From a bacterium (lineage in GTDB: Bacteria > SAR324 > NAC60-12): a DNA stretch of 64,000 bases. Both the position numbers and the translations under genes were made by a program. Shown one piece after another: positions 14,408-63,931 of the stretch (position 1 is its first letter; the number at the start of each line of letters is the position of its first letter). Location of the stretch: the NCBI GenBank assembly GCA_965205865.1, contig CBDBHR010000028.1:277600-341599 (forward strand). The letters are read 5' to 3'. The notes under the pieces were generated by a model. The model had not been told where the DNA came from. It was given only the letters and a program-made list of their open reading frames with translations, and did no database searches.

Positions 14408-15841
14408 ATGGTTCGTTTACGATTCGCCCCTAGTCCCACTGGTAATCTGCATCTCGGAGGATTACGCACCGCCTTGTTCAGTTATTTGTTCGCCAGGCAA
14501 AAAAAAGGAACATTCATCTTTCGTTTGGAAGATACTGACCAACGGCGTTTTGTGGAGGGGGCGGAATCGAACTTGTTGAATATGCTCTCATGGGGAGGAC
14601 TTCAAATTGATGAAGGAGGCGAATCAGGAGGGGCATATGGACCTTACCGGCAATCGGAAAGGCTTTCTCTCTATCATCGTCATGGCCAAAAGTTGTTGGA
14701 GTGCGGACATGCATACTATTGTTTCTGCACTCCTGAAACTTTAAAAGCCATCAAAGATGAGCAAAGTGCTGAGGGATTACCGACGCGTTATGACGGTCGT
14801 TGCCGGCATTTGTCGTATCATGTAGTGGAGCGACGCTTAGCGGAAGAAATTCCCCATGTGCTGCGCATGAAAGTTCCGCAAAATGAAACAATCGTAATGC
14901 CGGATCTGGTGCGAGGCACGGTAAGCATTGATAGCAGTCAACTCGACGACCAAGTGCTCATCAAAGCAAATGGCTTTCCAACCTACCACCTTGCCGTTGT
15001 GGTAGATGATCATCTCATGCGGATCAGCCATGTGATACGAGGAGAAGAATGGCTTCCTTCTTTTCCAAAACATCTTTTACTTTTTCGTTATTTCAACTGG
15101 AAGCCTCCTCGATTTGCCCACCTGCCCTTGATATTGAGTCAAGACCGCAGCAAATTGAGCAAACGTCAAGGAGACGTCGCCGTGGAGGATTATCAAAAAA
15201 AAGGATACCTTCCGGAAGCCCTTGTCAATTTCGTTGCCTTATTGGGTTGGAGCAGCGGAGACGATCAGGAATTCTTCACAAAGGAGGAATTGATTGAAAA
15301 ATTCAATTTTGAAGCAATAGGAAAATCAGCTGCCGTTTTTGATCGCGCAAAGCTGGATTGGATGAATCAGCAATATATCAAAAAATTACCTTTGCATGAA
15401 TTGTTTGTCCGTTTGATACCGTATATCCGGGAAACTCCCCATGCGGATCTGGAAGAAGGACAATTGAAGAAAATCTGCGCGATTCTTCAACCCCGACTGG
15501 TGGTTTTGGCTGATATAAAAAAAAGCCTTCCTCTTTTTTTTGAAGAAAAACCAATATTGACGAACACTCATCTGATTGAAGCCTTGCGGAGGGACCAATC
15601 CCGTATTGTGATGTCAGCCTTTCAAAAACAACTTGAAGCAATCGACGAAATTACGGAGGAAGGATTTTCCAAGATGATGAAGATCATACAAAAGACTACG
15701 GGTCTAAAAGGAAAAGATCTTTGGATGCCGATACGGTACGCGATTACATTGGAAGAACAGGGACCCGAACTTCCTGCAGTTGCCGCAATTTTTGGCAAGA
15801 ATAAGTGCCTCGGCATGATTGAACGGGCACTCCATCTCTAG
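14408..15841 (+). CDS. gltX: Glutamate--tRNA ligase
   Basis: Class I HIGH motif (PSPTGNLHLGG) and KMSKS motif (KLSKRQG). Length is 477 aa. Confidence 0.9.
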   Translation: MVRLRFAPSPTGNLHLGGLRTALFSYLFARQKKGTFIFRLEDTDQRRFVEGAESNLLNMLSWGGLQIDEGGESGGAYGPYRQSERLSLYHRHGQKLLECGHAYYCFCTPETLKAIKDEQSAEGLPTRYDGRCRHLSYHVVERRLAEEIPHVLRMKVPQNETIVMPDLVRGTVSIDSSQLDDQVLIKANGFPTYHLAVVVDDHLMRISHVIRGEEWLPSFPKHLLLFRYFNWKPPRFAHLPLILSQDRSKLSKRQGDVAVEDYQKKGYLPEALVNFVALLGWSSGDDQEFFTKEELIEKFNFEAIGKSAAVFDRAKLDWMNQQYIKKLPLHELFVRLIPYIRETPHADLEEGQLKKICAILQPRLVVLADIKKSLPLFFEEKPILTNTHLIEALRRDQSRIVMSAFQKQLEAIDEITEEGFSKMMKIIQKTTGLKGKDLWMPIRYAITLEEQGPELPAVAAIFGKNKCLGMIERALHL

Positions 15842-15862
15842 AAGAAAAAAGCAAGGTTTTCA

Positions 15863-18619
15863 ATGACTCATAATTGGGCGCCACCAGTCAAACCATTGAA
15901 ATCGAATCTCGCGGCATTTGGTTTTTGTCTCCTCTGCATCGGGTCGATTTCTCTTACTTTCGCTCCTGTTCATGGGCAAAACATGAATGATCTGAAAGAG
16001 ACCGTCAACAAACTTGGAGAGACGATGATTGAAGAATCTCTCACGGAGCAGCGAAGGGAGCCGCTGCTTGTCGTCACGGGAATTGTCAACGAAAGTACCG
16101 GAAAAAGGGATCTTTTGAGTGAATTGGTAGAAATCCTCTTAGTTGAAGTTTTAGCCCGGGGGGAAAATTATCCCGTTGTTGATTATAGTCAAATCCAGTC
16201 GGTACGAGAAGAAGTGTTAGAAGCTTTTCCCGACTCTTCTGCGGAGCAGATCAGTCAGGACTTAGCCGGTCTTCTAGGAGCAGATTGGTCTGTGACAGGA
16301 TCTTATTTGATACATGAGGGTAAAATCGAATTGCAGTTGCAACTCTATGAATCAGAAATCGACCAGTTGATTTGGGAAGGACAAACTGATTCTTTTTTGG
16401 AATTTGAGGAGGCTGAATCCGGAATCGCGGAAACCACCGTCTCCGAAAGCGAGGAATCGTCTGAATTGATCCCCGAATCCACCCCGCTCGAAACTGCTGT
16501 TGTTGAATCCGGGAGAACTTCTGAATTGATTCTCGAGAATGAGACCATCGAAGCCGAAGCGGGATCGGCCGTAGAGTCGGAACTTGAAGATACAACCATT
16601 GAAACGGCAGCTTCCGAAAGCGAGGAATCGTCTGAATTGATCCCCGAATCCACCCCGCTCGAAACTGCTGTTGTTGAATCCGGGAGAACTTCTGAATTGA
16701 TTCTCGAGAATGAGAGCATCGAAGCCGAAGCGGCATCGGCCGTAGAGTCGGAACTTGAAGATACAACCATTGAAACGGCAGTTTCCGAAAGCGAGGAATC
16801 GTCTGAATTGATCCCCGAAGCCACCCCGCTCGAAACTTCTGTTGTTGAATCCGGGAGAACTTCTGAATTGATTCTCGAGAATGAGACCATCGAAGCCGAA
16901 GCGGGATCGGCCGTAGAGTTGGAACTTGAAGATACAACCATTGAAACGGCAGTTTCCGAAAGCGAGGAATCGTCTGAATTGATCCCCGAAGCCACCCCGC
17001 TCGAAACTGCTGTTGTTGAATCCGGGAGAACTTCTGAATTGATTCTCGAGAAAGAGAGCATCGAAGCCGAAGCGGGATCGGCCGTAGAGTTGGAACTTGA
17101 AGATACAACCATTGAAACGGCAGCTTCCGAAAGCGAGGAATCGTCTGAATTGATCCCCGAAGCCACCCCGCTCGAAACTGCTGTTGTTGAATCCGGGAGA
17201 ACTTCTGAATTGATTCTCGAGAAAGAGAGCATCGAAGCCGAAGCGGCATCGGCCGTAGAGTTGGAACTTGAAGATACAACCATTGAAACGGCAGTTTCCG
17301 AAAGCGAGGAATCGTCTGAATTGATCCCCGAAGCCACCCCGCTCGAAACTGCTGTTGTTGAATCCGGGAGAACTTCTGAATTGATTCTTGAGAAAGAGAG
17401 CATCGAAGCCGAAGCGGGATCGGCCGTAGAGTTGGAACTTGAAGATACAACCATTGAAACGGCAGTTTCCGAAAGCGAGGAATCGTCTGAATTGATCCCC
17501 GAAGCCACCCCGCTCGAAACTGCTATTGTTGAAACCGAAAAGACTTCCGCCTCTATTCCGGTATACGACATAGGTTCAACTTTAGAATTAGAAGAAGCCG
17601 GGAGTTCGGATCCAACTACGGAATTTTTCGATGCATTCGCATATATTGCTATCGACGCAATGAGGCCTCCCCGTGAAGAGGAAGAGATTATTGATGAAAC
17701 GGTTTTGAAGTCGGAATCGGAACAGATCGACATTTCTCAAAAGAAGGACATGGTTTTAGTCTCAGAGGGAAGATTCTCGATGGGCAGTATCAATGGAGAG
17801 GCAAATGAACTGCCAGTGCATTCGGTTTATCTTCATCGTTATCTGATCGACGCGCATGAAGTCACCAATAGCGAATTTGCGCGTTGCGATATTTGTGAGA
17901 AGGGCAGCGGTGGATTTGACACAACGGAGCCCGACCAGCCTGTCGTTTACGTCGATTGGGAAAATGCTGATACTTATTGCCGTTTTGTCGGAAAAAGGCT
18001 GCCTACCGAGGCCGAATGGGAAAACAGCGCCCGGGCGGGAAGTAAAACGGAATATTCATTTGGAAACGTGCGACGACTCGACGCCTATGCATGGTATGAA
18101 GACAACGCGGAGCAGAAGGGGGAACGGTATGCTCACAAGGTGGCAACAAAACAACCCAATGCCTGGAACATTTATGACATGCACGGCAATGTAATGGAAT
18201 GGACCAACGACCTCTTTGTTGAGAATTATTATCAAAAATTAGAGGGCAACAAACCCTGGCATATTTTCGATTACTTCTATAACTCCGAGATCGACCACCC
18301 CTTCAAACCAAATATTTCCTCTGCAGTTGAAACTCCTTTGCGTGTCGTCAGGGGGGGGGCATGGGGAGGATTGTTTGGCACGGGAGACGCTCCCCAGTTG
18401 CGATCTGCAAAGCGTTTTCCGGTCAAGCCTTGGGTACAATCGTTTTTAATTGGATTTCGCTGTGCCGCAGATTGGAATCCACCCATGAATAAAAAGGAAG
18501 AACGGGAAAATGCAACTACTGAGAATACGACTGAATTCAAGGAATTTGATTCTCGGCAGGAAAGGGTGGGTGCGCAGAATGCTGCCGGGCCGAATAGAAA
18601 TCAAAATCAAAATTTTTGA
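15863..18619 (+). CDS. Secreted FGE-sulfatase (SUMF1/DUF323) domain protein with about 6.5 acidic 57-aa tandem repeats
   Basis: Signal peptide at the N-terminus. An LpoB/CsgG/TolB_N-like region follows (PLLVVTGIVNESTGKRDLLSEL...). Then come 6.5 units of a 57-aa repeat (ESEESSELIPEATPLETAVVESGRTSELILEKESIEAEAGSAVELELEDTTIETAVS). The C-terminal FGE-sulfatase domain shows ...RLPTEAEWENSARAG...YAWYEDNAE...WNIYDMHGNVMEWTNDLF...RVVRGGAWG...GFRCAA. The catalytic Cys pair of true FGE is not evident. Confidence 0.7.
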   Translation: MTHNWAPPVKPLKSNLAAFGFCLLCIGSISLTFAPVHGQNMNDLKETVNKLGETMIEESLTEQRREPLLVVTGIVNESTGKRDLLSELVEILLVEVLARGENYPVVDYSQIQSVREEVLEAFPDSSAEQISQDLAGLLGADWSVTGSYLIHEGKIELQLQLYESEIDQLIWEGQTDSFLEFEEAESGIAETTVSESEESSELIPESTPLETAVVESGRTSELILENETIEAEAGSAVESELEDTTIETAASESEESSELIPESTPLETAVVESGRTSELILENESIEAEAASAVESELEDTTIETAVSESEESSELIPEATPLETSVVESGRTSELILENETIEAEAGSAVELELEDTTIETAVSESEESSELIPEATPLETAVVESGRTSELILEKESIEAEAGSAVELELEDTTIETAASESEESSELIPEATPLETAVVESGRTSELILEKESIEAEAASAVELELEDTTIETAVSESEESSELIPEATPLETAVVESGRTSELILEKESIEAEAGSAVELELEDTTIETAVSESEESSELIPEATPLETAIVETEKTSASIPVYDIGSTLELEEAGSSDPTTEFFDAFAYIAIDAMRPPREEEEIIDETVLKSESEQIDISQKKDMVLVSEGRFSMGSINGEANELPVHSVYLHRYLIDAHEVTNSEFARCDICEKGSGGFDTTEPDQPVVYVDWENADTYCRFVGKRLPTEAEWENSARAGSKTEYSFGNVRRLDAYAWYEDNAEQKGERYAHKVATKQPNAWNIYDMHGNVMEWTNDLFVENYYQKLEGNKPWHIFDYFYNSEIDHPFKPNISSAVETPLRVVRGGAWGGLFGTGDAPQLRSAKRFPVKPWVQSFLIGFRCAADWNPPMNKKEERENATTENTTEFKEFDSRQERVGAQNAAGPNRNQNQNF
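16442..17530. repeat. 171-bp tandem repeat array (about 6.5 copies, near-identical) inside a CDS
   Basis: Unit starts at 16442, 16613, 16784, 16955, 17126, 17297 and 17468, giving an exact 171-nt period. Differences between units are only single nucleotides. Confidence 0.9.
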
Positions 18620-22047: not shown

Positions 22048-22123
22048 TGGAGCCCACGACGGGACTTGAACCTGCGACCTGCTCATTACGAATGAGCTGC
22101 TCTACCAGCTGAGCTACGTGGGC
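22048..22123 (-). tRNA. tRNA-Thr (anticodon CGT)
   Basis: Reverse complement reads GCCCACG-TA-GCTC-AGCTGGTA-GAGC-A-GCTCA-TTCGTAA-TGAGC-AGGTC-GCAGG-TTCAAGT-CCCGT-CGTGGGC-T-CCA. The acceptor stem is perfect. The anticodon loop TTCGTAA gives CGT. There is one A-C mismatch in the T-stem, and CCA is encoded. Confidence 0.7.
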
Positions 22124-24054: not shown

Positions 24055-24132
24055 CGGGGTATAGCGCAGCCTGGCTAGCGCACCTGCTTTGGGAGCAGGG
24101 GGTCGCAGGTTCGAGTCCTGCTACCCCGACCA
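24055..24132 (+). tRNA. tRNA-Pro (anticodon TGG)
   Basis: CGGGGTA-TA-GCGC-AGCCTGGCTA-GCGC-A-CCTGC-TTTGGGA-GCAGG-GGGTC-GCAGG-TTCGAGT-CCTGC-TACCCCG-A-CCA. All stems are perfect. The anticodon loop TTTGGGA gives TGG. Confidence 0.8.
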
Positions 24133-34246: not shown

Positions 34247-34297
34247 AAGAAACTCTTATGCGACAATACTACTAACAGTTTTGAAATAGCTATGAAG

Positions 34298-34526
34298 TAT
34301 TCTTTAGTTATGTACACAGAATCAATGTCATTCCTGGCTTGCCCAGGAATCCAGGGGTCCTGCCAAAGAACACCTGGATGCCTGATCAAGTCATGCATGA
34401 GACAGTCATCGTATTCTTTGTTATGTACACAGAATCAATGTCATTCCTGGCTTGCCCAGGAATCCAGGGGTCCTGCCAAAGAACACCTGGATGCCTGATC
34501 AAGTCATGCATGAGACAGTCATCGGG
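34298..34526. repeat. Two tandem copies of a 114-bp element, each containing hairpin GTCATTCCTGG-cttgc-CCAGGAATCC
   Basis: 34298-34411 and 34412-34525 are identical except for a 1-nt indel. The hairpin family also occurs at 199-226 and 44363-44388. Confidence 0.85.
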
Positions 34527-41278: not shown

Positions 41279-41814
41279 GCACCGGCGTCCATTTGCTCAG
41301 GTCGTGCCCTGTGCCCGGTGCTCGTCAACAAAAACTGAGAGTTACGGAAAGAACACTTTACAATGCTCAATGGGATGCATGGGTCGCTGTTGGAGAGACC
41401 TGGATCCTTTGTTTCACTCCAGTGCAAACGTTTTGCTGAGATGTCGATCCCCAAATCCAGGGAGAAGTACGTCTTGAATCTTGTGCCCGCGAAAGCGGGT
41501 ATCAGATCATCACAAAATATGACGATCTAATGGAGGGCGGAAAAACCTTTATGAGCAAGGACTGATGTAATTTCAACTCTCAAATCCTTTTTTTTAAAAA
41601 AACCTGTCAAAGAGTGGGGGGAAACTCAATCAAAATATTCAATTGCAGGATTTAGGTTTTATTATTTCTTTTTAGAAATGCTTGACTTACCATTTTAATC
41701 CCTTTATTCTGTCTCTGAAAGAGGTCAGATTTTGTTACATTTGAGCAAGATTTTCACTGCGTTTCGTTAAAATATCGTTAGAGATTGGCAAGAAATTTTT
41801 TAACTTTATGCCCT

Positions 41815-44672: not shown

Positions 44673-45441
44673 GGTCAGGCCGTGCGCCAGGAAAGCTGGC
44701 AAGAAATAGAGAGTGAAAGTCTCTTACTCGGTAAGGCAGTAACGACCCGCCGAGTCCCCGAGTCATGAGTGGTTATTCGCAAGGATAGGCGCTAAGCGTT
44801 GACAGGGGAGAACATAGGCTCGGTATTGAGCTCCGAAATCATAGTTTCAGGTGCTGACCTTGTAGTCTGGTGGGGAAGGCAACATCAACCGAAGGCGTTA
44901 GCGTGAGTCCCGGTCGAGCCTGGCGGAGTCAAAGACCCGGTGCATGTGTGGAAGTTTCTTGATCGGAACCTGGGAGATCCTGAAGACGACTGTCAACATT
45001 CTATTGGTAGTCGGATCGGGAAAATTAATAAATAACCCCGATATCTACGTCTTCAGGAAGTCGGACAAGTTCGTAGTAGCGATGAAGCGGCGAACAATGA
45101 GATCATTTGTAGAGAGTAATAATGCAAAGGAAATCAACGGAGCCTGTGGAGCAAAGGGACTTGGCTGAGAGGAATTCTGCTTGCCCTCCTGTGTTCGGAA
45201 CTCAGAGGCCGGTAAAATCAGAGAGCGGTTTAAGCAGGGTGCGCCAAACGGCAACGTCTGAGCGTCTGACTCGAAGCAGGAGCCGGATGCGTTAGCAGCG
45301 CATGTCCGGATCTGTACCGGAGGAATGACGAAAGGTGGCTGGAAACCACTATAAGTCAGTTCTTTACGGTGACTTTGATTAAATGAAAAGGGAGCAAAAA
45401 AACTAGACTCGTTCCTAATCAAACAATCAAAGGCCTGACCC
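44673..45441 (+). mobile_element. ~770-bp non-coding group-II-intron-like repeat, copy A
   Basis: Starts GGTCAGGCC|GUGCGCCAGGAAAGCUGGC (GUGCG, then a GAAA-tetraloop hairpin). Near the 3' end is GAGCCGGAUGCG-uuagca-GCGCAUGUCCGGAUCU, which is domain-V-like (AGC triad, 2-nt bulge). Ends ...AAAGGCCUGACC. The 9-nt termini are inverted repeats. Copies A, D and E are about 95% identical. Confidence 0.5.
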
Positions 45442-47664: not shown

Positions 47665-47859
47665 TATTGCAATTTTAAACCTATGTTACGGACAGAGAGT
47701 GTCAAGGGATTATCTTCAGCAGGATACTAGAAGATATTCTGTAGGGATTCAGGTCTCTCCTACTGCGACCCATGCATTCCATTGAGCATTGTAAAGAGAC
47801 TTGGGAATCACAAAAAAATCAGCTTGGCATCTTGCCCATCGACTCCGGAAGACGTGGCA

Positions 47860-48611: not shown

Positions 48612-50292
48612 TCAGGCCGTGCGCCAGGAAAGCTGGCAAGAAATAGAGAGTGAAAGTCTCTTACTCGGTAAGGCAGTAACGACCCGCCGAGTCCCCGAGT
48701 CATGAGTGGTTATTCGCAAGGATAGGCGCTAAGCGTTGACAGGGGAGAACATAGGCTCGGTATTGAGCTCCGAAATCATAGTTTCAGGCGCTGACCTTGT
48801 GGTCTGGTGGGGAAGGCAATATCAACCGAAGGCGTTAGCGTGAGTCCCGGCTGAGCCTGGCGGAGTCAAAGACCCGGTGCATGTGTGGAAGTTTCTTGAT
48901 CGGAACCTGGGAGATCCTGAAGACGACTGTCAACATTCTATTGGTAGTCGGATCGGGAAAATTAATAAATAACCCCGATATCTACGTCTTCAGGAAGTCG
49001 GACGAGTTCGTAGTGCGCACTGGGCAGCGCATGATTCAGGTGGGTTCAAGTTCCACTCAGCCTGAGATCCCAGGCTGATATCCAAAAGCGGGGGTAATGC
49101 CTCGCTGGCCGGAATGTTTACCAGGGCGCCATCCTGGGCGCTTTAAGCACAATGGGAGGTCGAAAGGGCCAAATGCACCGAAGTGAACTTCCGGAGGACA
49201 GGGTGTCCACCGTGAGGTGGAATCTGAAGGGTTTGCGGAGAATCACCGGGTCGTAGTCAAGGAGGCTACTCCAGAGACGAACCGGTCGGCCAACAGCAGG
49301 GAATGGTTGAGCTTGCACTATGATGGCGAAAGCAGTTGGATTCCCCCCTGCAATACCAAGGTGTGTGCGGACGACACGGTGAGGAAGAATCATGAGTGAC
49401 CCCAGGAGGACTCAGGGCGTTCTTAGGTGGCACTAGGATAAGGGACCCTATAAGCGAAAGCGAAGTGGAAACCGAAGCGTGTTGAGTAGTCGGACCATCG
49501 AATAGTACCTGAAGCGTAGTGAGAGCTACGTGACCGAGGGATCGGCAGCAGAGTGAGCTGGGGAAGGCGATGGGCAGAGAAGGTTGGAATGAGAAAGGAA
49601 GTCAGATGAGTAAGGACAGTGAGGTGGAAAGTTCGGTAAGTGAAAGACCCAGAACTCATGGCCCGAGGAGACTGGCTGACTGGATCAATCTAACGGGAGC
49701 AAAGAAGGTTCACTCCTTAGTGGACAAGATTTACAAGAAGCTCTCCCCGAAACAAGATTATATGGGGAGTATCGGTTAGTAAATCTGATCTCACTAATTC
49801 CTTCGATTGGTCCCTTCGGCAAACGGACTTCTCTGTGAAAGCCGGATGCGGGAAAACTGCACGTCCGGTTTGGGCGGCGGACGGTGGCTAGCGGAAACGC
49901 GCCTCCTCCGACCCGACAGCGATGAAGCGGCGAACAATGAGATCATTTGTAGAGAGTAACAACGCAAAGGAAATCAACGGAGCCTGTGGAGCAAAGGGAC
50001 TTGGCTGAGAGGAATTCTGCTTGCCTTCCTGTGTTCGGAACTCAGAGGCCGGTAAAATCAGAGAGCGGTTTAAGCAGGGTGCGCCAAACGGCGAATCCGA
50101 ATCAACGTTTGAGCGTCTGACTCGAAGCAGGAGCCGGATGCGTTAGCAGCGCACGTCCGGATCTGTACCGGAGGAATGACGAAAGGTGGCTGGAAACCAC
50201 TATAAGTCAGTTCTTTACGGTGACTTTGATTAAATGAAAAGGGAGCAAAAAAACTAGACTCGTTCTTAATCAAATAATCAAAGGCCTGACCC
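48612..50292 (+). mobile_element. 770-bp repeat copy B/C interrupted by a nested ~905-bp group II intron
   Basis: 48612-49012 matches the 5' 400 bp of copy A. 49921-50292 matches the 3' 370 bp. The intervening 49013-49917 is unique to this copy. Confidence 0.6.
49013..49917 (+). ncRNA. Group II intron (ORF-degenerate) inserted into repeat copy B
   Basis: Starts GUGCGCAC. Near the 3' end is AAGCCGGAUGCGG-gaaaa-CUGCAC-GUCCGGUUU. This gives a domain V with AGC triad, AC bulge and G-U wobble at the triad G, close to the consensus GAGCCGUAUGCGAUGAAAGUCGCACGUACGGUUC. A domain-VI-like helix with a bulged A follows. An internal 69-aa ORF (49570-49779, ...RRLADWINLTGAKKVHSLVDKIYKK...) resembles the N-terminus of intron-encoded reverse transcriptases. 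Boundaries are uncertain to about 5 nt. Confidence 0.6.
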
Positions 50293-50590: not shown

Positions 50591-52460
50591 GACCCTAGCC
50601 GAAAAGGGTTTCGAGAAATAGTAAATGTAACCAATTTGATTCTATTTGATTCTCTATTTGATTCAATATGACGAGAATAACGATTTATTTTGTTTTTTAT
50701 TCGCCCACATGAAACAGTTTTTATAGGGAAAAAATCTTTTTTTGGACATACTTTCCTCGCCCCTGCTCATATTTCACACTTCCCCCATTGAATATTCAGG
50801 CCGCTTGTTTGAGTTGTCTTTTTTTCAACTCAATCATTTTGCAAAAATTATAGGTTAAGAGCTTTTTCCAGCAACTCTGCCCGAACGTTTTCAATCCCTC
50901 TGCGCATAACTTGTCCGAAATGGAAACGATGCTTAAGATGAAACATCAACGACTCTGCAGCAGATCTTCCATTTCGTGATTCCAAATAGATTTCACTTTC
51001 CCATTCTTCAATCGGGGTCATCTTTTTTCCCAAACGCCCCACTAATACTAAAAACCTTAACGCCTTTGCCCATCCACTTTTCTCTGATCGCCTGATTGGC
51101 ATATCCATCATCAAGGCTCACTTCAGAGGGAATGGTGATGGTGCATCGCAAATGTTCAACAAGGGCAGGGTCGAGTTGCCCTGAATCAGCAGCATGGCCC
51201 TCCGGAGTAATTAACACGGAAATAAAACCATTTCCGCTCCTTCCTAATTGAGGCTTATATCCGATAAGCGCTTCTCGATCTCTTTTGAATATAAGCCGAG
51301 CTCTGATCGGAAAGACTCAATACTTTCTCAGTCGAAGGAACCTTCTTTTCTTCAAAAACTCTTTGATGACAGTAGATGATTCCGTTGCAAATTAGAAATA
51401 TCTTCATTCATCATTTCAATGAGGCGAATAACGCGTTTTCCGAGAAGGGGGGAGAAGAGCTTTTTGAGGCACGGTAATAAGGACAGTTTGCGATTTCTTT
51501 TAAAAATTTCCCAAAGCGCTATTGAGCTTTCTCAATAGCGGTCATTTGAAATGTTTTTAAAAGCTTCGTTTTACTGTCCTTTTTACCGTGTCTCAAAAGC
51601 CATCATCCCCCCTTAGAAAAGCTTATTCATCTCCTTGATGAGGAAATCAAAATTTCTTTCACTGATCTCAGCGATTCCAAATGTATCAAGGGAACGCCCT
51701 CGATGGTAGCTTCGCTCCGATCGAGACGAGTCATATTCGAGGGAATCGAGTAGGCCAAGCTGATATTTCCTTTTACAGAGGTGCTATCCAGTTTTTAATA
51801 TCAAAATCGTCCAACTCTTCATCGAGAACCATTCTGAATTCAGAGCAATCGAAAATAAACTGTTGAACTCTCGTTGATGACAGCATTGACCATTATCTGA
51901 AGGAGCCTTGTACTCGATCCCGGCATTGCCAATCCACGGTTGAGCAAAAGCAGATGCAAAGTGTGATTGACTCTGAAAGAATTATTTGGGCCGTTTGGGA
52001 TTTGATACTTCCTAAATGATCCCCGAATCATGATAAAAAGGTAAACTAAAAAAGCCGAATCCGAGGACAGATCTATTTCCAGTCCTGAGTTCTTCGGCTT
52101 CAATTCCTCATCTTCCATTACGGGAAGATGAGGAAGCCATGGATTCCGGGCTTCCTGCCAGTTTATCCTCTAAACGCTCTTTCTTTTTATTTCTTGCGTA
52201 TTTCTCCAAATCCTGTTCAATTTTGTCCAATATCTCCGGCTCTCGCTCAGACAATTGATCAAGTTCTGATAAGAAATTTTCAAATTCTGTATCAGGAGCG
52301 CTTAAAATAAGATGTTTTTCTGCTCGAATGAATGGTTTCATTTTGGGTGCCATAATTCTTAATATTGAAGTTATTCACAGTCATTTCAATGAATTATGGC
52401 ACTTTCAATAACCTCAAGTTTAAAGATATAATTCTAAAAAATACCTTTTCGGCTAGGATC
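50591..52460 (-). mobile_element. IS copy 1 (same family as 59323-61154), transposase pseudogenised
   Basis: Same TIRs (GACCCTAGCCGAAAAGG ... CCTTTTCGGCTAGGATC). TAGCTA is present on both flanks, consistent with a 6-bp TSD. The transposase frame is broken into at least 4 pieces (ORFs 50848-51114, 51008-51217, 51840-52118, 52108-52353) by indels. Confidence 0.7.
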
Positions 52461-52835
52461 TAGCTAAGTAATCCCGTAGAACTTTATCACAATATCACGC
52501 AATTTTCTGTGAATTGTTCCCAAGTATTAAGAAAAATGTAGGATCCCAGTCATTTCTTTACGATCTGGCACATATATTGCCTTGTTGACAACTCCTGTAT
52601 AATATTCTGCATTTGTAAACCCTCAAAAGGATAAAATATAAGGATCACAAAAAACTATAAGGGGTGACATGACAGAAAAAAAAATTACAAAAATTAAAAT
52701 TCATAATATGCCATTCGGAGGATTTTGGATTGATCCCAAAGACATCATCTTAAGTGATGAAGGTCAAAAAATAATCAAGCAAATAGCAAAAATATCTATT
52801 AAAAAAACTAAAGATAAATCTGAAGATTAAAACAA

Positions 52836-55918: not shown

Positions 55919-56698
55919 GGTCAGGCTGTGCGCCAGGAAAGCTGGCAAGAAATAGAGAGTGAAAGTCTCTTACTCGGTAAGGCAGTAACGACCCGCCGAG
56001 TCCCCGAGTCATGAGTGGTTATTCGCAAGGATAGGCGCTAAGCGTTGACAGGGGAGAACATAGGCTCGGTATTGAGCTCCGAAATCATAGTTTCAAGTGC
56101 TGACCTTGTAGTCTGGTGGGGAAGGCAACATCAACCGAAGGCGTTAGCGTGAGTCCCGGTCGAGCCTGGCGGAGTCAAAGACCCGGCGCATGTGTGGAAG
56201 TTTCTTGATCGGAACCTGGGAGATCCTGAAGACGACTGTCAACATTCTATTGGTAGTCGGATCGGGAAAATTAATAAATAACCCCGATATCTACGTCTTC
56301 AGGAAGTCGGACAAGTTCGTAGTAGCGATGAAGCGGCGAACAATGAGATCATTTGTAGAGAGTAACAATGCAAAGGAAATCAACGGAGCCTGTGGAGCAA
56401 AGGGACTTGGCTGAGAGGAATTCTGCTTGCCCTCCTGTGTTCGGAACTCAGAGGCCGGTAAAATCAGAGAGCGGTTCAAGCAGGGTGCGCCAAACGGCAA
56501 TCCGAATCAACGTTTGAGCGTCTGACTCGAAGCAGGAGCCGGATGCGTTAGCAGCGCACGTCCGGATCTGTACCGGAGGAATGACGAAAGGTGGCTGGAA
56601 ACCACTATAAATCAGTTCTTTACGGTGACTTTGATTAAATGAAAAGGGAGCAAAAAACTGGACTCGTTCCTAATCAAATAATTAAAGGCCTGACCCCT
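55919..56698 (+). mobile_element. ~770-bp group-II-intron-like repeat, copy D
   Basis: Full-length copy, same orientation. It ends 28 bp upstream of the start codon of the 56727 lipoprotein gene. The 12-bp CTGACCCCTTTT is tandemly duplicated at the 3' junction. Confidence 0.5.
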
Positions 56699-58095: not shown

Positions 58096-59330
58096 ATGAG
58101 AATCCGTCAGATTACGAGCATCACGATCTTGTTGCTGTTGGCTGCAACGGCTTCTAATCTCGTTTGGGCTCTCACCCCCACTTCATCAATGGAGTTGCCC
58201 CTGACGCAGGGGGAGCAGGCCGCAAGACTCTGGCGGATTGCCAGTGCGGAGGTCGCTCGCAAGCTCTATCCGACTTTCGGTAGAGACGATCGAACCAAAG
58301 TTTTATTACCAGCGCAACTATCGCCTCCTGTGGATTGAAGCAACCCTCAATCAACGGATACTGTTGGCAGAAAAGATTGGTGTTACAAGGTGCCGCCAGG
58401 TTCGCTGCGGAACGAGGTTGGATTAAGATACTCGGTTTTCGGTATCGTGGCATCCAACAAGGGCCAGACTCCGTGTATTGGGATCAACGATCAGGTCGTC
58501 TCCGCGTACTGGAAGCGAAAGGAGGAACTGCCAAACCAATAAAGGCTTTCAATAGCTTGCAGGGTACGAATAAAAACGCGATCAGGTCTGCTAGATTTGT
58601 TCTTCGGTCATTAAAAGCAACCCTTATGGAAAAACATGCGGCTGCACTTGTAATTGTGGCTGCTCAGCAGGGTCGACTCGTTACAGGTGTAATAAATACT
58701 CTTCACAAGTTGGGAACTCCGGACACCCCCAAGCTGGCAGGCAATTGGGATTACGATTATGTAGGAAGGGAAGCAAGCACGATCGAGCAGAAATTAATCC
58801 GTAATAAACCCGAGGTTCGATCAGTCTTTCGGCATGCGCATAAGGAGCAATCATTTGCCATGCTGAAATACTGGGAAACCCGAAGACCGGCGAACATTGG
58901 ATTTGCTAGGAATGCGTACCAGCAGTCACTGATTGCCTGGTCCAAGTTCAACAATCCTCCCCTGAAAGGAAACGTTTTACCCTACATAAGGACTGGCTCG
59001 TCGATTCACAGAATAACACAGTCAACTACTCAACCAGGTATTTTGAGACTTTCCAAGGAGGGAGTTAGTAAGTTTGCCGGCAGATTGATTCTACCGGTCA
59101 TCCTTGGTGTGGAGGGATTACAATTTGCCATAGCATATCACCAATACGGCTTGGGTCGTATCAGTCAGCGTGATTTCTACCGTCGCACTACCGGACCCGC
59201 GATCGTCGCGGTTTTCACAGTCGGCGGAGCTATAGTTGGTGGGATTATTGGAATGCAAGGCGGAGGGATCACGGCAATCCCAGTTGCCTACACTGGTGCC
59301 AAAATAGGCGCGATCCTAGCTAGACCCTAG
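58096..59330 (+). pseudogene. Secreted protein with C-terminal glycine-zipper membrane segment, likely disrupted (frame changes near 58240-58340) and 3'-truncated by IS
   Basis: The signal peptide ORF (58096-58338), a third-frame ORF (58238-58426) and the main ORF (58335-59330) each continue plausible protein sequence across overlaps. The last two codons and the stop (AGA CCC TAG) lie inside the IS left end. The C-terminus GAIVGGIIGMQGGGITAIPVAYTGAKIGAIL is a Gly-zipper. Confidence 0.35.
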
Positions 59331-61154
59331 CCGAAAAGGGTTTCGAAAATAGTAAATGTAACCAATTTGATTCTATTTGATTCTCTATTTGATTCAATAT
59401 GACGAGAAAACGATTTTTTTGTTTTTTATTCGCCCACAGCACAGTTTTTATAGGGAAAAAATCTTTTTTGGACATACTTTCCTCGCCCCTGCTCATATTT
59501 CACACTCCCCCATTGAATATTCAGGCCGCTTGTTTGAGTTGTCTTTTTTTCAACTCAATCATTTTGCAAAAATTATAGGTTAATGCTTTTTCCAGCAACT
59601 CTGCCCGAACGTTTTCAATCCCTCTGCGCATAACTTGTCCGAAATGGAAACGATGCTTAAGATGAAACATCAACGACTCTGCAGCAGATCTTCCATTTCG
59701 TGATTCCAAATAGATTTCACTTTCCCATTCTTCAATCGGGGTCATCTTTTTTCCCTTTGCCCCACTAATACTAAAAACCTTAACGCCTTTGCCCATCCAC
59801 TTTTCTCTGATCGCCTGATTGGCATATCCATCATCAAGGCTCACTTCAGAGGGAATGGTGATGGTGCATCGCAAATGTTCAACAAGGGCAGGGTCGAGTT
59901 GCCCTGAATCAGCAGCATTGCCCTCCGGAGTAATTAACACGGAAATAAAACCATTTCCGCTCCTTCCTAATTGAGGCTTATATCCGATAAGCGCTTCTCG
60001 ATCTCCCTTTTGAATATAAGCCGAGCTCTGATCGGAAAGACTCAATACTTTCTCAGTAGAAGGAACCTTCTTTTCTTCAAAAACTCTTTGATGACAGTAG
60101 ATGATTACCCGTTGCAAATTAGAAATATCTTCATTCATCATTTCAATGAGGCGAATCAAACGCGTTTTCCGAGAAGGGGGGAGAAGAGCTTTTTGGGCAC
60201 GGATATCCACCTTTGCCATTTCTTTTAAAAATTTCCCATGAGCGCTTTGAGCTTTCTTCAATAGGGTTTTGTAATGTTTTTTTCGCTTCGTTTTACTGTC
60301 CTTTTTACCTGTCTCAAAAGCCATCATCTTAGAGAGCTTATTCATCTCCTTGATGAGGAAATCAAAATTTCTTTCACTGATCTCAGCGATTCCAAATGTA
60401 TCAAGGGAACGCCCTCGATGGTAGCTTCGCTCCACGAGACGAGTCAATATCGACGAATCAGTAGGCCAAGCTGTATTTCCTTTTACAGAGGTGCTATCCA
60501 GTTTTAAAATATCAAAATCGTCCAACTCTTCATCGAGAACCATTCGAATTTGAGCATCGAAAATAAACTGTCTGCTCTCGTTGCTGACAGCATTGACATT
60601 ATCAAGGATTGTACTCGCTCCCGGCATTTTCAATCCACGGTTGAGCAGAAGCAGATGCAGTGTGATTGACTCTGAAAGAAATATTTGGGCCGTTTGGGAT
60701 TTGATACTTCCTAAATATCCCCGAATCATCATAAAAAGGTAGACTAAAAAAGCCGACATCCGAGGACACCCTATTTCCAGCCTCAGTTCTTCCGGCTTCA
60801 ATTCCTCATCTTCTACGGGAAGATGAGGAAGCCATGGATTCCGGGCTTCCTGCCATCGTTTATCCTCTAAACGCTCTTTCTTTTTATTTCTTGCGTATTT
60901 CTCCAAATCCTGTTCAATTTTGTCCAATATCTCCGGCTCTCGCTCAGACAATTGATCAAGTTCTGATAAGAAATTTTCAAATTCTGTATCAGGAGCGCTT
61001 AAAATAAGATGTTTTTCTGCTCGAATGAATGGTTTCATTTTGGGTGCCATAATTCTTAATATTGAAGTTATTCACAGTTATTTCAATGAATTATGGCACT
61101 TTTTAACCTCAAGTTTAAAGATATAATTCTAAAAAATACCTTTTCGGCTAGGAT
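59323..61154 (-). mobile_element. IS copy 2 (1.83 kb), intact; DDE transposase of IS4 superfamily (IS1634-like?)
   Basis: TIRs GACCCTAGCCGAAAAGG / GATCCTAGCCGAAAAGG(rc). The transposase CDS 59521-61050 (509 aa) carries candidate DDE-K residues (LKLDSTSV; SLDDGYANQ; RSAAESLMFHLK). TAGCTA sits on both sides. Confidence 0.75.
59521..61050 (-). CDS. DDE transposase (509 aa)
   Basis: Intact ORF, 100% identical to 61360-62889 apart from one substitution (I15F). Motifs as listed for IS copy 2 (59323-61154). Confidence 0.8.
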   Translation of the reverse strand: MAPKMKPFIRAEKHLILSAPDTEFENFLSELDQLSEREPEILDKIEQDLEKYARNKKKERLEDKRWQEARNPWLPHLPVEDEELKPEELRLEIGCPRMSAFLVYLFMMIRGYLGSIKSQTAQIFLSESITLHLLLLNRGLKMPGASTILDNVNAVSNESRQFIFDAQIRMVLDEELDDFDILKLDSTSVKGNTAWPTDSSILTRLVERSYHRGRSLDTFGIAEISERNFDFLIKEMNKLSKMMAFETGKKDSKTKRKKHYKTLLKKAQSAHGKFLKEMAKVDIRAQKALLPPSRKTRLIRLIEMMNEDISNLQRVIIYCHQRVFEEKKVPSTEKVLSLSDQSSAYIQKGDREALIGYKPQLGRSGNGFISVLITPEGNAADSGQLDPALVEHLRCTITIPSEVSLDDGYANQAIREKWMGKGVKVFSISGAKGKKMTPIEEWESEIYLESRNGRSAAESLMFHLKHRFHFGQVMRRGIENVRAELLEKALTYNFCKMIELKKRQLKQAA

Positions 61155-61160
61155 CTAGCT

Positions 61161-62994
61161 AGACCCTAGCCGAAAAGGGTTTCGAAAATAGTAAATGTAA
61201 CCAATTTGATTCTATTTGATTCTCTATTTGATTCAATATGACGAGAAAACGATTTTTTTGTTTTTTATTCGCCCACAGCACAGTTTTTATAGGGAAAAAA
61301 TCTTTTTTGGACATACTTTCCTCGCTCCTGCTCATATTTCACACTCCCCCATTGAATATTCAGGCCGCTTGTTTGAGTTGTCTTTTTTTCAACTCAATCA
61401 TTTTGCAAAAATTATAGGTTAATGCTTTTTCCAGCAACTCTGCCCGAACGTTTTCAATCCCTCTGCGCATAACTTGTCCGAAATGGAAACGATGCTTAAG
61501 ATGAAACATCAACGACTCTGCAGCAGATCTTCCATTTCGTGATTCCAAATAGATTTCACTTTCCCATTCTTCAATCGGGGTCATCTTTTTTCCCTTTGCC
61601 CCACTAATACTAAAAACCTTAACGCCTTTGCCCATCCACTTTTCTCTGATCGCCTGATTGGCATATCCATCATCAAGGCTCACTTCAGAGGGAATGGTGA
61701 TGGTGCATCGCAAATGTTCAACAAGGGCAGGGTCGAGTTGCCCTGAATCAGCAGCATTGCCCTCCGGAGTAATTAACACGGAAATAAAACCATTTCCGCT
61801 CCTTCCTAATTGAGGCTTATATCCGATAAGCGCTTCTCGATCTCCCTTTTGAATATAAGCCGAGCTCTGATCGGAAAGACTCAATACTTTCTCAGTAGAA
61901 GGAACCTTCTTTTCTTCAAAAACTCTTTGATGACAGTAGATGATTACCCGTTGCAAATTAGAAATATCTTCATTCATCATTTCAATGAGGCGAATCAAAC
62001 GCGTTTTCCGAGAAGGGGGGAGAAGAGCTTTTTGGGCACGGATATCCACCTTTGCCATTTCTTTTAAAAATTTCCCATGAGCGCTTTGAGCTTTCTTCAA
62101 TAGGGTTTTGTAATGTTTTTTTCGCTTCGTTTTACTGTCCTTTTTACCTGTCTCAAAAGCCATCATCTTAGAGAGCTTATTCATCTCCTTGATGAGGAAA
62201 TCAAAATTTCTTTCACTGATCTCAGCGATTCCAAATGTATCAAGGGAACGCCCTCGATGGTAGCTTCGCTCCACGAGACGAGTCAATATCGACGAATCAG
62301 TAGGCCAAGCTGTATTTCCTTTTACAGAGGTGCTATCCAGTTTTAAAATATCAAAATCGTCCAACTCTTCATCGAGAACCATTCGAATTTGAGCATCGAA
62401 AATAAACTGTCTGCTCTCGTTGCTGACAGCATTGACATTATCAAGGATTGTACTCGCTCCCGGCATTTTCAATCCACGGTTGAGCAGAAGCAGATGCAGT
62501 GTGATTGACTCTGAAAGAAATATTTGGGCCGTTTGGGATTTGATACTTCCTAAATATCCCCGAATCATCATAAAAAGGTAGACTAAAAAAGCCGACATCC
62601 GAGGACACCCTATTTCCAGCCTCAGTTCTTCCGGCTTCAATTCCTCATCTTCCACGGGAAGATGAGGAAGCCATGGATTCCGGGCTTCCTGCCATCGTTT
62701 ATCCTCTAAACGCTCTTTCTTTTTATTTCTTGCGTATTTCTCCAAATCCTGTTCAATTTTGTCCAATATCTCCGGCTCTCGCTCAGACAATTGATCAAGT
62801 TCTGATAAGAAATTTTCAAATTCTGTATCAGGAGCGCTTAAAAAAAGATGTTTTTCTGCTCGAATGAATGGTTTCATTTTGGGTGCCATAATTCTTAATA
62901 TTGAAGTTATTCACAGTGATTTCAATGAATTATGGCACTTTTTAACCTCAAGTTTAAAGATATAATTCTAAAAAATACCTTTTCGGCTAGGATC
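61161..62994 (-). mobile_element. IS copy 3, intact, in direct tandem with copy 2 (6-bp TAGCTA spacer)
   Basis: Identical TIRs. The right flank is GAGCTA. It truncates an upstream-facing gene whose 3' remnant (...HFAADYMLDWHYREFDEHQRLVVNAAVEKHYGLNPGS*) lies at 62998-63111. Confidence 0.75.
61360..62889 (-). CDS. DDE transposase (509 aa), second identical copy
   Basis: Same as 59521-61050. Confidence 0.8.
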   Translation of the reverse strand: MAPKMKPFIRAEKHLFLSAPDTEFENFLSELDQLSEREPEILDKIEQDLEKYARNKKKERLEDKRWQEARNPWLPHLPVEDEELKPEELRLEIGCPRMSAFLVYLFMMIRGYLGSIKSQTAQIFLSESITLHLLLLNRGLKMPGASTILDNVNAVSNESRQFIFDAQIRMVLDEELDDFDILKLDSTSVKGNTAWPTDSSILTRLVERSYHRGRSLDTFGIAEISERNFDFLIKEMNKLSKMMAFETGKKDSKTKRKKHYKTLLKKAQSAHGKFLKEMAKVDIRAQKALLPPSRKTRLIRLIEMMNEDISNLQRVIIYCHQRVFEEKKVPSTEKVLSLSDQSSAYIQKGDREALIGYKPQLGRSGNGFISVLITPEGNAADSGQLDPALVEHLRCTITIPSEVSLDDGYANQAIREKWMGKGVKVFSISGAKGKKMTPIEEWESEIYLESRNGRSAAESLMFHLKHRFHFGQVMRRGIENVRAELLEKALTYNFCKMIELKKRQLKQAA

Positions 62995-63164
62995 GAGCTA
63001 TTCCTGTTCATTTTGCAGCCGATTATATGTTGGATTGGCATTACCGGGAATTCGATGAACATCAACGTCTGGTCGTTAATGCGGCAGTTGAAAAACACTA
63101 TGGCTTGAACCCCGGATCATAGTTCAACACTGACTCGTGATCATACCTTTACCCTGAAACGGGG

Positions 63165-63931
63165 ACAGGCCGTGCGCCAGGAAAGCTGGCAAGAAATAGA
63201 GAGTGAAAGTCTCTTACTCGGTAAGGCAGTAACGACCCGCCGAGTCCCCGAGTCATGAGTGGTTATTCGCAAGGATAGGCGCTAAGCGTTGACAGGGGAG
63301 AACATAGGCTCGGTATTGAGCTCCGAAATCATAGTTTCAGGCGCTGACCTTGTGGTCTGGTGGGGAAGGCAATATCAACCGAAGGCGTTAGCGTGAGTCT
63401 CGGCTGAGCCTGGCGCAGTCAAAGACCCGGTGCATGTGTGGAAGTTTCTTGATCGGAACCTGGGAGATCCTGAAGACGACTGTCAACATTCTATTGGTAG
63501 TCGGATCGGGAAAATTAATAAATAACCCCGATATCTACGTCTTCAGGAAGTCGGACAAGTTCGTAGTAGCGATGAAGCGGCGAACAATGAGATCATTTGC
63601 AGAGAGTAACAATGCAAAGGAAATCAACGGAGCCTGTGGAGCAAAAGGACTTGGCTGAGAGGAATTCTGCTTGCCCTCCTGTGTTCGGAACTCAGAGGCC
63701 GGTAAAATCAGAGAGCGGTTTAAGCAGGGTGCGCCAAACGGCAACGTTTGAGCGTCTGACTCGAAGCAGGAGCCGGATGCGTTAGCAGCGCACGTCCGGA
63801 TCTGTACCGGAGGAATGACGAAAGGTGGCTGGAAACCACTATAAGTCAGTTTTTTACGGTGACTTTGATTAAATGAAAAGGGAGCAAAAAAATTGGACTC
63901 GTTCCTAATCAAATAATCAATGGCCTGACCC
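63165..63931 (+). mobile_element. ~770-bp group-II-intron-like repeat, copy E
   Basis: Full-length copy with the same orientation and termini (..ACAGGCC|GUGCGCC ... AAUGGCCUGACC). Confidence 0.5.

Follow-up and report, generated by a model that had tools for sequence, protein, structure and literature searches.

Strain-variable acidic tandem repeats join predicted LpoB-fold and FGE-fold domains in a probably periplasmic SAR324 protein

What does a run of near-identical, strongly acidic repeats do in the middle of a gene whose two ends encode conserved domains? This question is raised by an open reading frame (ORF) in a 64-kb stretch of SAR324 DNA (contig CBDBHR010000028.1), referred to here as the window, on which all coordinates and strands are based. 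In the ORF listing of the window, positions 15863-18619 of the forward strand encode a protein of 918 amino acids (aa). SAR324 is an abundant, uncultured ocean lineage, and to our knowledge its envelope biology is essentially unknown. In this study, we found that the protein is the local version of a SAR324-wide conserved gene located just downstream of gltX, and that in the window's species its linker has reached approximately 450 aa via in-frame tandem duplication of a 171-bp unit. We infer, with a probability of roughly 0.55, that the protein is exported, probably to the periplasm, and that its linker serves as a flexible polyanionic spacer between two binding modules. Proteins and loci (or contigs) used for comparison carry P- and L-numbers, respectively.

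The repeat was delimited in three ways. Tandem Repeats Finder reported one array at 16442-17537 (period 171, 6.4 copies, 98% matches, 0% indels, score 2073), which is the top-scoring tandem repeat within the window. An ungapped repeat search gave six copies with a spacing of exactly 171 nt, and in-frame reading from nt 16430 (aa 190) gave six full 57-aa units, the last of which ends at 17455 (16430-17455, forward strand). The full units are mutually 95-100% identical. A partial seventh unit (17456-17537, approximately 0.45 unit) tracks the consensus for about 26 aa and diverges into unique sequence afterwards. The array of near-identical 171-bp (57-aa) units described in a first-pass annotation of this DNA was thus recovered as six full units plus 0.45, with 98% matches and no indels. 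The same annotation put the net charge at about -14 per unit; the strong acidity holds, and the measured value is slightly more acidic, at -15 or -16 (17 Asp and Glu, one or two Lys and Arg). The linker (aa 176-620) is 27% Glu with a net charge of -119 by composition; for the mature protein, the net charge is -147. The end of the linker (17538-17740, approximately aa 559-626) is acidic and non-repetitive, and has been conserved in strains of the species. The repeat itself matches no Pfam family, and no other protein with the 57-aa repeat was found; the first homology search gave five close relatives, all of which are the same gene. A protein identical to that of the window is present in the collection searched, encoded on a contig of 627,655 bp. 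Two long ORFs on the reverse strand (16251-17450 and 16345-17733, spanning 16251-17733) were previously suspected to be artefacts of the repeat. Both exist in the ORF listing and both translations are periodic, and a similar antisense ORF lies over the unrelated repeat of L002. They are by-products of the periodic, Glu-codon-rich sense frame and not genes, because the sense frame joins two conserved domains in one frame in all orthologues.

The copy number differs between strains. In conspecific contigs, the flanking genes are 97-99% identical in DNA, and the array occupies the same place with a spacing of exactly 171 nt. Five full units were counted in L001 and P0044, six in the window, L083, L084, L085, and P0038, seven in P0037, and eight in L086. 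Each conspecific contig accordingly carries 5.4, 6.4, 7.4, or 8.4 copies, and Tandem Repeats Finder returned 5.4 for L001 and 8.4 for L086. L001 is located on a 1.1-Mb contig at 22x coverage and L086 on a 1.7-Mb contig at 13x coverage. A single sample contains both 6-copy and 8-copy alleles. Strain-variable repeat number had been anticipated, and the counts over related contigs (5, 6, 7, and 8 full units) bear this out. All variants from 5 to 8 copies stay in frame. Because the unit consists of 3 x 57 nt, copy changes alter only the length and charge of the protein, never its frame. The proposal of a contingency locus in the phase-variation sense is therefore not supported, and an on-off switch was ruled out: 171 is divisible by 3, the array lies within the ORF, and it is always in phase.

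The units of an array also evolve together. In four of the five arrays compared, units of the same array differ on average by 3-5 of 171 nt. Between most strain pairs, the mean distance is 6.6-10.7; the exception is L084 versus L085, which come from the same sample (3.2). At unit position 29, Arg is present in all units of the window and P0002, and Lys in nearly all units of P0001, P0003, P0004, and P0036; Val versus Leu at position 48 follows the same strain split. Thus, the units undergo concerted evolution, as the first-pass annotation had offered among its explanations, since strain-specific substitutions fill whole arrays and within-array distances are below between-strain distances. Unit 1 groups by position across strains, and the interior units are homogenised. 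The units of the window form an ordered gradient, with S17/S50 in units 1-2 and K37 in units 4-6. The Lys37/Ser39 variant is confined to the neighbouring window units 4-6 and marks a recent local duplication or conversion. Between strains, the array is 94.5-96.7% identical and the flanks are 97-99% identical. Among the six window units, 10 of the 12 varying nucleotide sites alter the amino acid. As a test of selection, the codon-position counts are too sparse to be read: even in gltX, 9 of 20 differences fall at codon positions 1 and 2, and low-coverage contigs may carry errors. The substitutions in the units are conservative (A/S/T/V/G, K/R, and L/V) and preserve the charge, and the 17 acidic residues per unit are almost never substituted in the units of ten conspecific proteins.

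The unit itself is nested and comprises approximately three sub-units of about 19-20 aa. Between its first and second 60-nt thirds, 35 of 60 nt are identical, a value reached by none of 10000 shuffles, and Tandem Repeats Finder detected a weak period-60 sub-array in L001. The 171-bp unit is made of older sub-units of approximately 60 bp.

Expansion of this linker is not confined to the window's species. In a distribution scan with one genome per species, full-length orthologues were present only in metagenome-assembled genomes labelled SAR324 or 'Deltaproteobacteria bacterium' (L003-L008). When the N-terminal domain was searched exhaustively with HMMER against 1.84 billion representatives, only 26 clusters emerged, and an FGE-sulfatase domain was also present in 16 of 23 scanned sequences (the window N-domain and 22 HMMER matches). 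A search seeded with a short-linker orthologue retrieved hundreds of members, including an abundant marine clade of 611 aa that NCBI labels 'SUMF1/EgtB/PvdO family nonheme iron enzyme [SAR324 cluster bacterium]', the linker of which is approximately 230 aa, acidic, and non-repetitive. The common plan of all members is a signal peptide, the N-domain, a low-complexity linker, and an FGE-like domain bearing a CxxC motif. The linker ranges from 43 to 568 aa over the family; it carries a net negative charge in all members, abounds in S, T, P, and E, and in most cases is located on the disordered side of the charge-hydropathy boundary. Some members have linkers of 43-145 aa, some of which are proline-rich and only weakly acidic (net -2 to -27), and keep both end domains. 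The linker of L002 (8454-8961) contains its own in-frame tandem duplication (225 bp x 2.0-2.2, 93-98% identity), and so does that of L003 (7041-7448; 201 bp x 2.0, 95% identity). Because the linkers of L002 and L003 were duplicated independently, the linker is a recurrent hotspot of in-frame expansion. What is conserved in the linker is composition, not sequence or length.

The protein carries a Sec-type signal peptide (aa 1-38, 15863-15976), which was assigned by eye from the translation. It has a basic n-region (K10 and K13), a 19-residue hydrophobic core LAAFGFCLLCIGSISLTFA, and a V-H-G|Q cleavage motif. The cleavage motifs of orthologues are equivalent (VQA|Q, VVA|Q, VHA|Q, and VYG|Q), with conserved small residues at -3 and -1. 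There is no [LVI][ASTVI][GAS]C lipobox in the window protein, in which Phe and Leu precede Cys22 and Cys25, and none in the orthologues; the idea of a lipoprotein was ruled out on this ground. Pfam and NCBIfam scans and direct reading of the sequence gave no outer-membrane translocation signal, beta-barrel, or C-terminal domain of the type IX secretion system (T9SS). Given the lack of a lipobox, the mature protein is probably retained in the envelope in soluble, periplasmic form.

The N-terminal globular domain (aa 39-175, 15977-16387) is related to LpoB. Pfam LpoB matched aa 45-175 with 21.3 bits in the whole protein, just below the cut-off, and with 26.8 bits when the domain was isolated (cut-off 22.3); orthologous N-domains also match CsgG, TolB_N, FlgO, and DUF3280. 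An AlphaFold2 model of the domain from a 23-sequence alignment had a predicted local distance difference test (pLDDT) score of 88.6. The best Protein Data Bank (PDB) matches by Foldseek were the C-domains of LpoB (4q6l and 4q6z, E 1e-7, template modelling (TM) score 0.63-0.69); over the LpoB set of 4q6l, 4q6z, and 2mii, the values were E 1e-7 to 9e-6 and TM 0.58-0.69. GNA1162, the TolB N-domain, PelC, and CsgG followed; LpoB, TolB_N, PelC, and CsgG are all modules of the periplasmic envelope. The model therefore predicts an alpha-beta fold of the LpoB/TolB_N/PelC/CsgG type. The architecture given in the first-pass annotation, in which a signal peptide and an LpoB/TolB_N-like module precede the acidic repeats and a formylglycine-generating enzyme (FGE) fold, agrees with these sequence and fold comparisons.

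The C-terminal domain (aa 627-868, 17741-18466) has the FGE-sulfatase fold, which is C-type-lectin-like. Pfam FGE-sulfatase (PF03781) matched with 145.8 bits against a cut-off of 23.3 (E 2.5e-42, model positions 2-254 of 255). A family profile built from eleven FGE-like domains of the family matched the Streptomyces coelicolor and human FGE structures with E-values of approximately 1e-39 to 1e-36 (best 4e-39), and PorK (3e-29), TvpA (3e-29), and PvdO (4e-23) less closely. In the profile alignment, the catalytic cysteines of FGE (human Cys336 and Cys341) face Phe838 and Ala843, the ends of the segment F838-G-T-G-D-A843 (18374-18391), and the loss of the pair is common to all aligned family members. 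The cysteines of the 918-aa protein are only those at 22, 25, 675, 678, 706, and 867. The loss is alignment-independent because there is no Cys between residues 707 and 866. The family consensus over the FGE catalytic region is RVVRGGAWGGLFGxGxAxxLRSAKRF. A 14-residue loop (C-D-I-C-E-K-G-S-G-G-F-D-T-T) replaces the insert of about 60 aa that follows the first beta-hairpin region in FGE. Its C-x-x-C (Cys675 and Cys678 in CDICEKGSGGFDT, 17885-17896) forms invariant alignment columns across the family; those outgroup FGE-like domains that could be parsed have no CxxC and carry an NPSxF loop instead. Cys706 and Cys867 are conserved and match one structural disulfide of FGE, presumably human Cys218-Cys365. 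The D-x-x-G-N-V-M-E-W motif, which we take to be calcium-site-like, is also conserved in the family.

Known subfamilies with this fold do not accommodate the domain, as it scored only 53-67 bits against curated models with cut-offs of 350-500. It remained below the cut-offs for the EgtB/OvoA/SenA sulfoxide and selenoxide synthases (TIGR03440, 67.2 bits vs 360; NF041186, 57.2 vs 420), GldK TIGR03525 (65.7 vs 350), and PvdO NF051459 (53.2 vs 500). There is no DinB-type iron domain as in EgtB and SenA; the N-terminal domain has the predicted LpoB fold. From its sequence, the domain belongs to a cysteine-less FGE-fold subfamily of its own, since the cysteine pair is lost, the CxxC loop is family-specific, and the curated-model scores are far below the cut-offs. 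The loss of the cysteine pair suspected in the first-pass annotation is thereby confirmed. Its proposal of a non-catalytic binding domain is plausible, and the domain is likely non-catalytic; the invariant CxxC loop leaves room for other chemistry. A regular-expression search of all six frames of the 64-kb window gave no sulfatase-type CxPxR signature in ORFs of at least 300 aa, which is a weak test because FGE genes need not neighbour sulfatases. A target of a diversity-generating retroelement (DGR), similar to TvpA, was ruled out: the window contains no template repeat, i.e. no second copy of the 3' part of the gene, and strains and orthologues hardly differ in the C-terminal part of the domain.

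We propose the following scheme for the protein. Unequal recombination or replication slippage between units that are 95-100% identical keeps altering the copy number and homogenises the units. The resulting array may act as a flexible, strongly self-repelling polyanionic tether, which would define how far a C-terminal ligand-binding module can reach from an N-terminal docking module. Selection would then act on composition, charge, and approximate length, not on exact sequence.

Several known systems resemble parts of this scheme. LpoB is an outer-membrane lipoprotein that binds PBP1B at its UB2H domain and activates it in Enterobacteria, and Egan and colleagues are said to have described in 2014 a globular domain and a long disordered linker that reaches across the periplasm. 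The N-domain appears to share the LpoB fold, and LpoB is its top match among solved structures. However, the SAR324 protein has no lipobox or lipid anchor, its linker is C-terminal of the domain and not N-terminal, the identity is approximately 19%, there is an extra FGE-like domain, and the phylum is different. Other periplasm-spanning spacers (the Pro-rich region of TonB, domain II of TolA, Pal, and the linkers of LpoA and LpoB) likewise join two functional ends with a biased low-complexity segment, in which length matters and not exact sequence, as is reported for the disordered N-terminus of Pal (PMC12826056). Unlike the array described here, these spacers are not long, near-identical tandem repeats and have no known strain polymorphism in copy number, and neither end of the SAR324 protein is membrane-anchored as far as its sequence tells.

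The closest analogue, not homologue, is Arp (TP0433) of Treponema pallidum. Its 60-bp repeats are near-perfect and acidic, occur in 2-22 copies, and differ between types in ways that all change amino acids; Arp has a C-terminal SPOR domain and is predicted to be periplasmic, its repeats are hard to resolve with short reads, and the role of the repeats is undetermined (PMC9531955). Both proteins are exported and probably periplasmic, with a near-perfect in-frame acidic repeat N-terminal to a C-terminal binding domain and strain-variable copies; short reads resolve the repeats poorly in both. There is no homology between them: Arp combines 60-bp (20-aa) units with a peptidoglycan-binding SPOR domain, whereas the SAR324 protein places 171-bp (57-aa) units between LpoB-fold and FGE-fold domains and comes from an environmental bacterium, not a pathogen. 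The Pfam scan of the SAR324 protein gave FGE-sulfatase and LpoB only and no SPOR domain.

For the C-terminal domain, PorK/GldK, GldJ, PvdO, and TvpA are precedents: these periplasmic or surface proteins use an FGE or C-type-lectin-like fold that lacks the FGE cysteine pair, and PorK/GldK, PvdO, and TvpA illustrate how common such cysteine-less folds are outside true FGE. The SAR324 protein differs from GldK and PvdO in that it is below the curated cut-offs, is not a lipoprotein, and has the family-specific CxxC loop, and it differs from TvpA in that the gene has no DGR template repeat in the window. FGE itself (SUMF1 and bacterial FGE) is the best sequence match among solved structures, and its structural-disulfide Cys and D-x-x-G-N-V-M-E-W are kept; the differences are the replacement of the catalytic Cys by Phe838 and Ala843 and of the insert of about 60 aa by the 14-aa loop.

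Several observations weigh against a simple polyanionic spacer. The tenfold range of linker length speaks against a strict ruler. Approximately 30% of the repeat residues are hydrophobic, in alternating patterns such as VELELED and IEAEA, and the unit is near the order/disorder boundary (H 0.473 vs 0.508 in the charge-hydropathy analysis), so that the repeat might fold, perhaps with divalent cations, instead of forming a random-coil tether. From unit to unit, the acidic positions and a motif resembling S-E-L-I-P-E persist, and they can loosely be made out in the differing repeats of L002, which hints at a sequence-specific function. A full-length AlphaFold2 model from a 6-sequence alignment is uninformative, with a pLDDT of 26 throughout, known domains included. 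The periplasmic localisation rests on a signal peptide read by hand. The invariant CxxC loop means that the C-domain could be an enzyme. The distance pattern is not uniform either: in L083 (6x coverage), the within-array distance (9.1) exceeds the distance to two other strains (6.6-6.9), possibly because of low-coverage errors.

In the strongest of the rival explanations, the acidic array would be a functional module in its own right, either a high-capacity, low-affinity binder of divalent cations (Ca2+, Mg2+, or metals) or a cation-dependent beta-rich structure, and the copy number would tune its capacity. Besides the near-invariance of the 17 acidic residues and the alternation of hydrophobic and Glu stretches, the nested sub-repeat of about 19-20 aa has the size of one beta-solenoid turn, which is approximately 19-20 aa. 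Beta-sheet models have been proposed for the Arp repeats of T. pallidum (PMC9531955). On the other side, high acidity is not needed for the core function of the family, because members with weakly acidic linkers of 43-145 aa keep both end domains, and the repeat has no Pfam family, no counterpart in another protein, and no confident structure model. We consider this module a tentative possibility.

A second alternative makes the C-domain an enzyme, such as a redox enzyme of the periplasm acting via the invariant CxxC or a metal site, and has the linker merely tether it. We regard this as doubtful. It accords with Cys675 and Cys678 being invariant in the family and absent from the parsable outgroup domains, with the good conservation of the loop that replaces the FGE cysteine pair (GGAWGG.FG.G....LRSA.RF), and with the NCBI label of relatives as a nonheme iron enzyme of the SUMF1/EgtB/PvdO family. 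PvdO, which has the FGE fold without the FGE cysteines, is named 'dihydropyoverdine dehydrogenase' by NCBIfam. However, both FGE catalytic Cys and a DinB-type iron domain are absent, every curated enzyme model scored 53-67 bits against 360-500, and two Cys three residues apart in an exported protein may equally be a structural disulfide. PorK, GldJ, and TvpA represent non-catalytic uses of the fold and exemplify how often it is non-catalytic.

The polymorphism could also belong to a contingency or antigenic-variation locus of a surface-exposed protein that evades phages, grazers, or a host, which we consider very unlikely. Co-occurring strains do differ in copy number, as in the sample with 6- and 8-copy alleles, most varying sites of the window units (10 of 12) change the amino acid, and the array diverges faster than its flanks (94.5-96.7% vs 97-99% identity). 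However, a unit divisible by 3 permits no frame switching, there is no homopolymer or short-unit tract, and the substitutions are conservative and preserve charge. No surface-export signal, beta-barrel, T9SS C-terminal domain, or lipobox was found, and both end-domain folds are typical of periplasmic proteins.

That an assembly error accounts for the array or its copy number is scarcely credible: several low-coverage conspecific contigs have frameshifts inside the array, but it occurs in no fewer than eight independent contigs, drawn from three or more samples, in the same place, in exact 171-nt phase and with unit-specific variant patterns, the window units are non-identical and form an ordered gradient, and the window resolves four intron copies of 97-99% identity and a tandem 1.84-kb duplication of 98-100% identity. 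The array is real, yet it is a site where assemblies make errors. Frameshifts within it split or truncate the gene in P0039 + P0042, P0041 + P0043, and P0040, the last of which sits on a 1.46-Mb contig; these could be low-coverage assembly errors or true pseudogenes in some strains. The first-pass annotation had warned of errors in short-read assemblies. The low-coverage contigs fit its warning that the array is prone to error; judging from their names and megabase sizes, the conspecific contigs appear to be long-read assemblies. The resolved group II introns and 1.84-kb duplication likewise point to a long-read assembly of the window, the reads of which would span 1.1 kb.

The gene context offers weak hints at most. 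The gene starts 21 nt after the stop codon of gltX (TAG, 15839-15841), with a motif resembling a ribosome-binding site (AAGG, 15853-15856, forward strand) 6 nt before the ATG, and a terminator scan gave no terminator-like site between gltX and the ORF. The gene is downstream of gltX in every orthologous locus, and in L004 a short opposite-strand ORF lies in between. The order SEDS (FtsW/RodA family, PF01098), gltX, and this gene is kept in three distant loci (L005 3397-7389, L006 3175-7323, and L007 1743-5890). In the window's clade, waaA (a lipopolysaccharide gene, convergent) and a bactofilin gene are located downstream. The SEDS, waaA, and bactofilin neighbours weakly hint at an envelope role, and the SEDS gene, two genes upstream in L005-L007, together with the LpoB-like fold makes a link to cell-wall synthesis possible, if weakly so; it is the one hint at an LpoB-like action on a peptidoglycan synthase. 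The annotated flanking genes included neither T9SS nor pyoverdine genes. A radical SAM/SPASM gene lies between the gene and waaA in L002 (10180-11103, reverse strand) and L004 (7844-8743, reverse strand), and is absent from the window and L001. In L001 (18248-18580), a called gene of 441 aa fuses a response-regulator receiver (PF00072) with LpxC (PF03331), an unusual arrangement for the committed enzyme of lipid A synthesis. At the other end of the protein, a low-complexity C-terminal tail (aa 869-918, 18467-18619 with the stop codon) is restricted to the species group in alignments of conspecifics and orthologues, and is absent in P0005 and remoter orthologues.

Other repeats and RNA elements of the window are noted here for completeness. 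Four group II intron copies, 97-99% identical, lie within 20 kb on the forward strand (44716-44938, 48653-48875, 55962-56184, and 63206-63428). They match Rfam RF02005 with 158-165 bits and coincide with repeat families D2-D4; one match to Intron_gpII domain V/VI is located at 49837-49917. Four such introns in 20 kb form an unusually dense retroelement cluster. Three copies of a unit of approximately 1.84 kb are present (50603-52466, 59316-61161, and 61155-63000; families D5-D20); the last two form a direct tandem and share 98-100% identity. This unit could be a mobile element, or it could stem from a recent segmental duplication that is interleaved with the introns. An inverted repeat of 52 nt (41356-41407 and 47745-47796; 92% complementary, arms 6.3 kb apart) could represent the ends of a mobile element. 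A 113-bp unit at 34297-34524 is repeated 2.0 times with 99% identity, and its period is not divisible by 3. The window also encodes tRNA-Thr(CGU) at 22048-22123 (reverse strand) and tRNA-Pro(UGG) at 24055-24132 (forward strand).

Variable in-frame repeats in exported bacterial proteins are already well known, and the current understanding of them is not overturned. What is new is a SAR324-specific, previously undescribed combination of LpoB-fold and FGE-fold domains with a variable-number repeat linker; a literature search found nothing on the combination of FGE-sulfatase and LpoB, nor on acidic tandem repeats in SAR324. The gene is SAR324-wide and has been annotated only generically, as 'formylglycine-generating enzyme family protein' or 'SUMF1/EgtB/PvdO family nonheme iron enzyme'. 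Where the label implies FGE, it misleads, since neither catalytic cysteine is left. The locus shows how a linker grows by nested duplication, from units of approximately 60 bp to 171-bp units and then to 5-8 copies, followed by homogenisation, with parallel independent linker duplications in other lineages. In addition, the array can be used as a strain-typing marker for the population. A bolder version, which we consider a long shot, is that the protein is a SAR324-wide envelope factor, in which the LpoB-like module would dock on a cell-wall synthase or another envelope machine, the FGE/lectin-like module with its CxxC would bind a second component, the polyanionic linker would set the distance or fold on binding Ca2+ or Mg2+ from seawater, and the 5-8-copy polymorphism would represent functional tuning and not neutral slippage. 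If this is true, the polymorphism would tune envelope geometry or cation capacity between co-existing strains.

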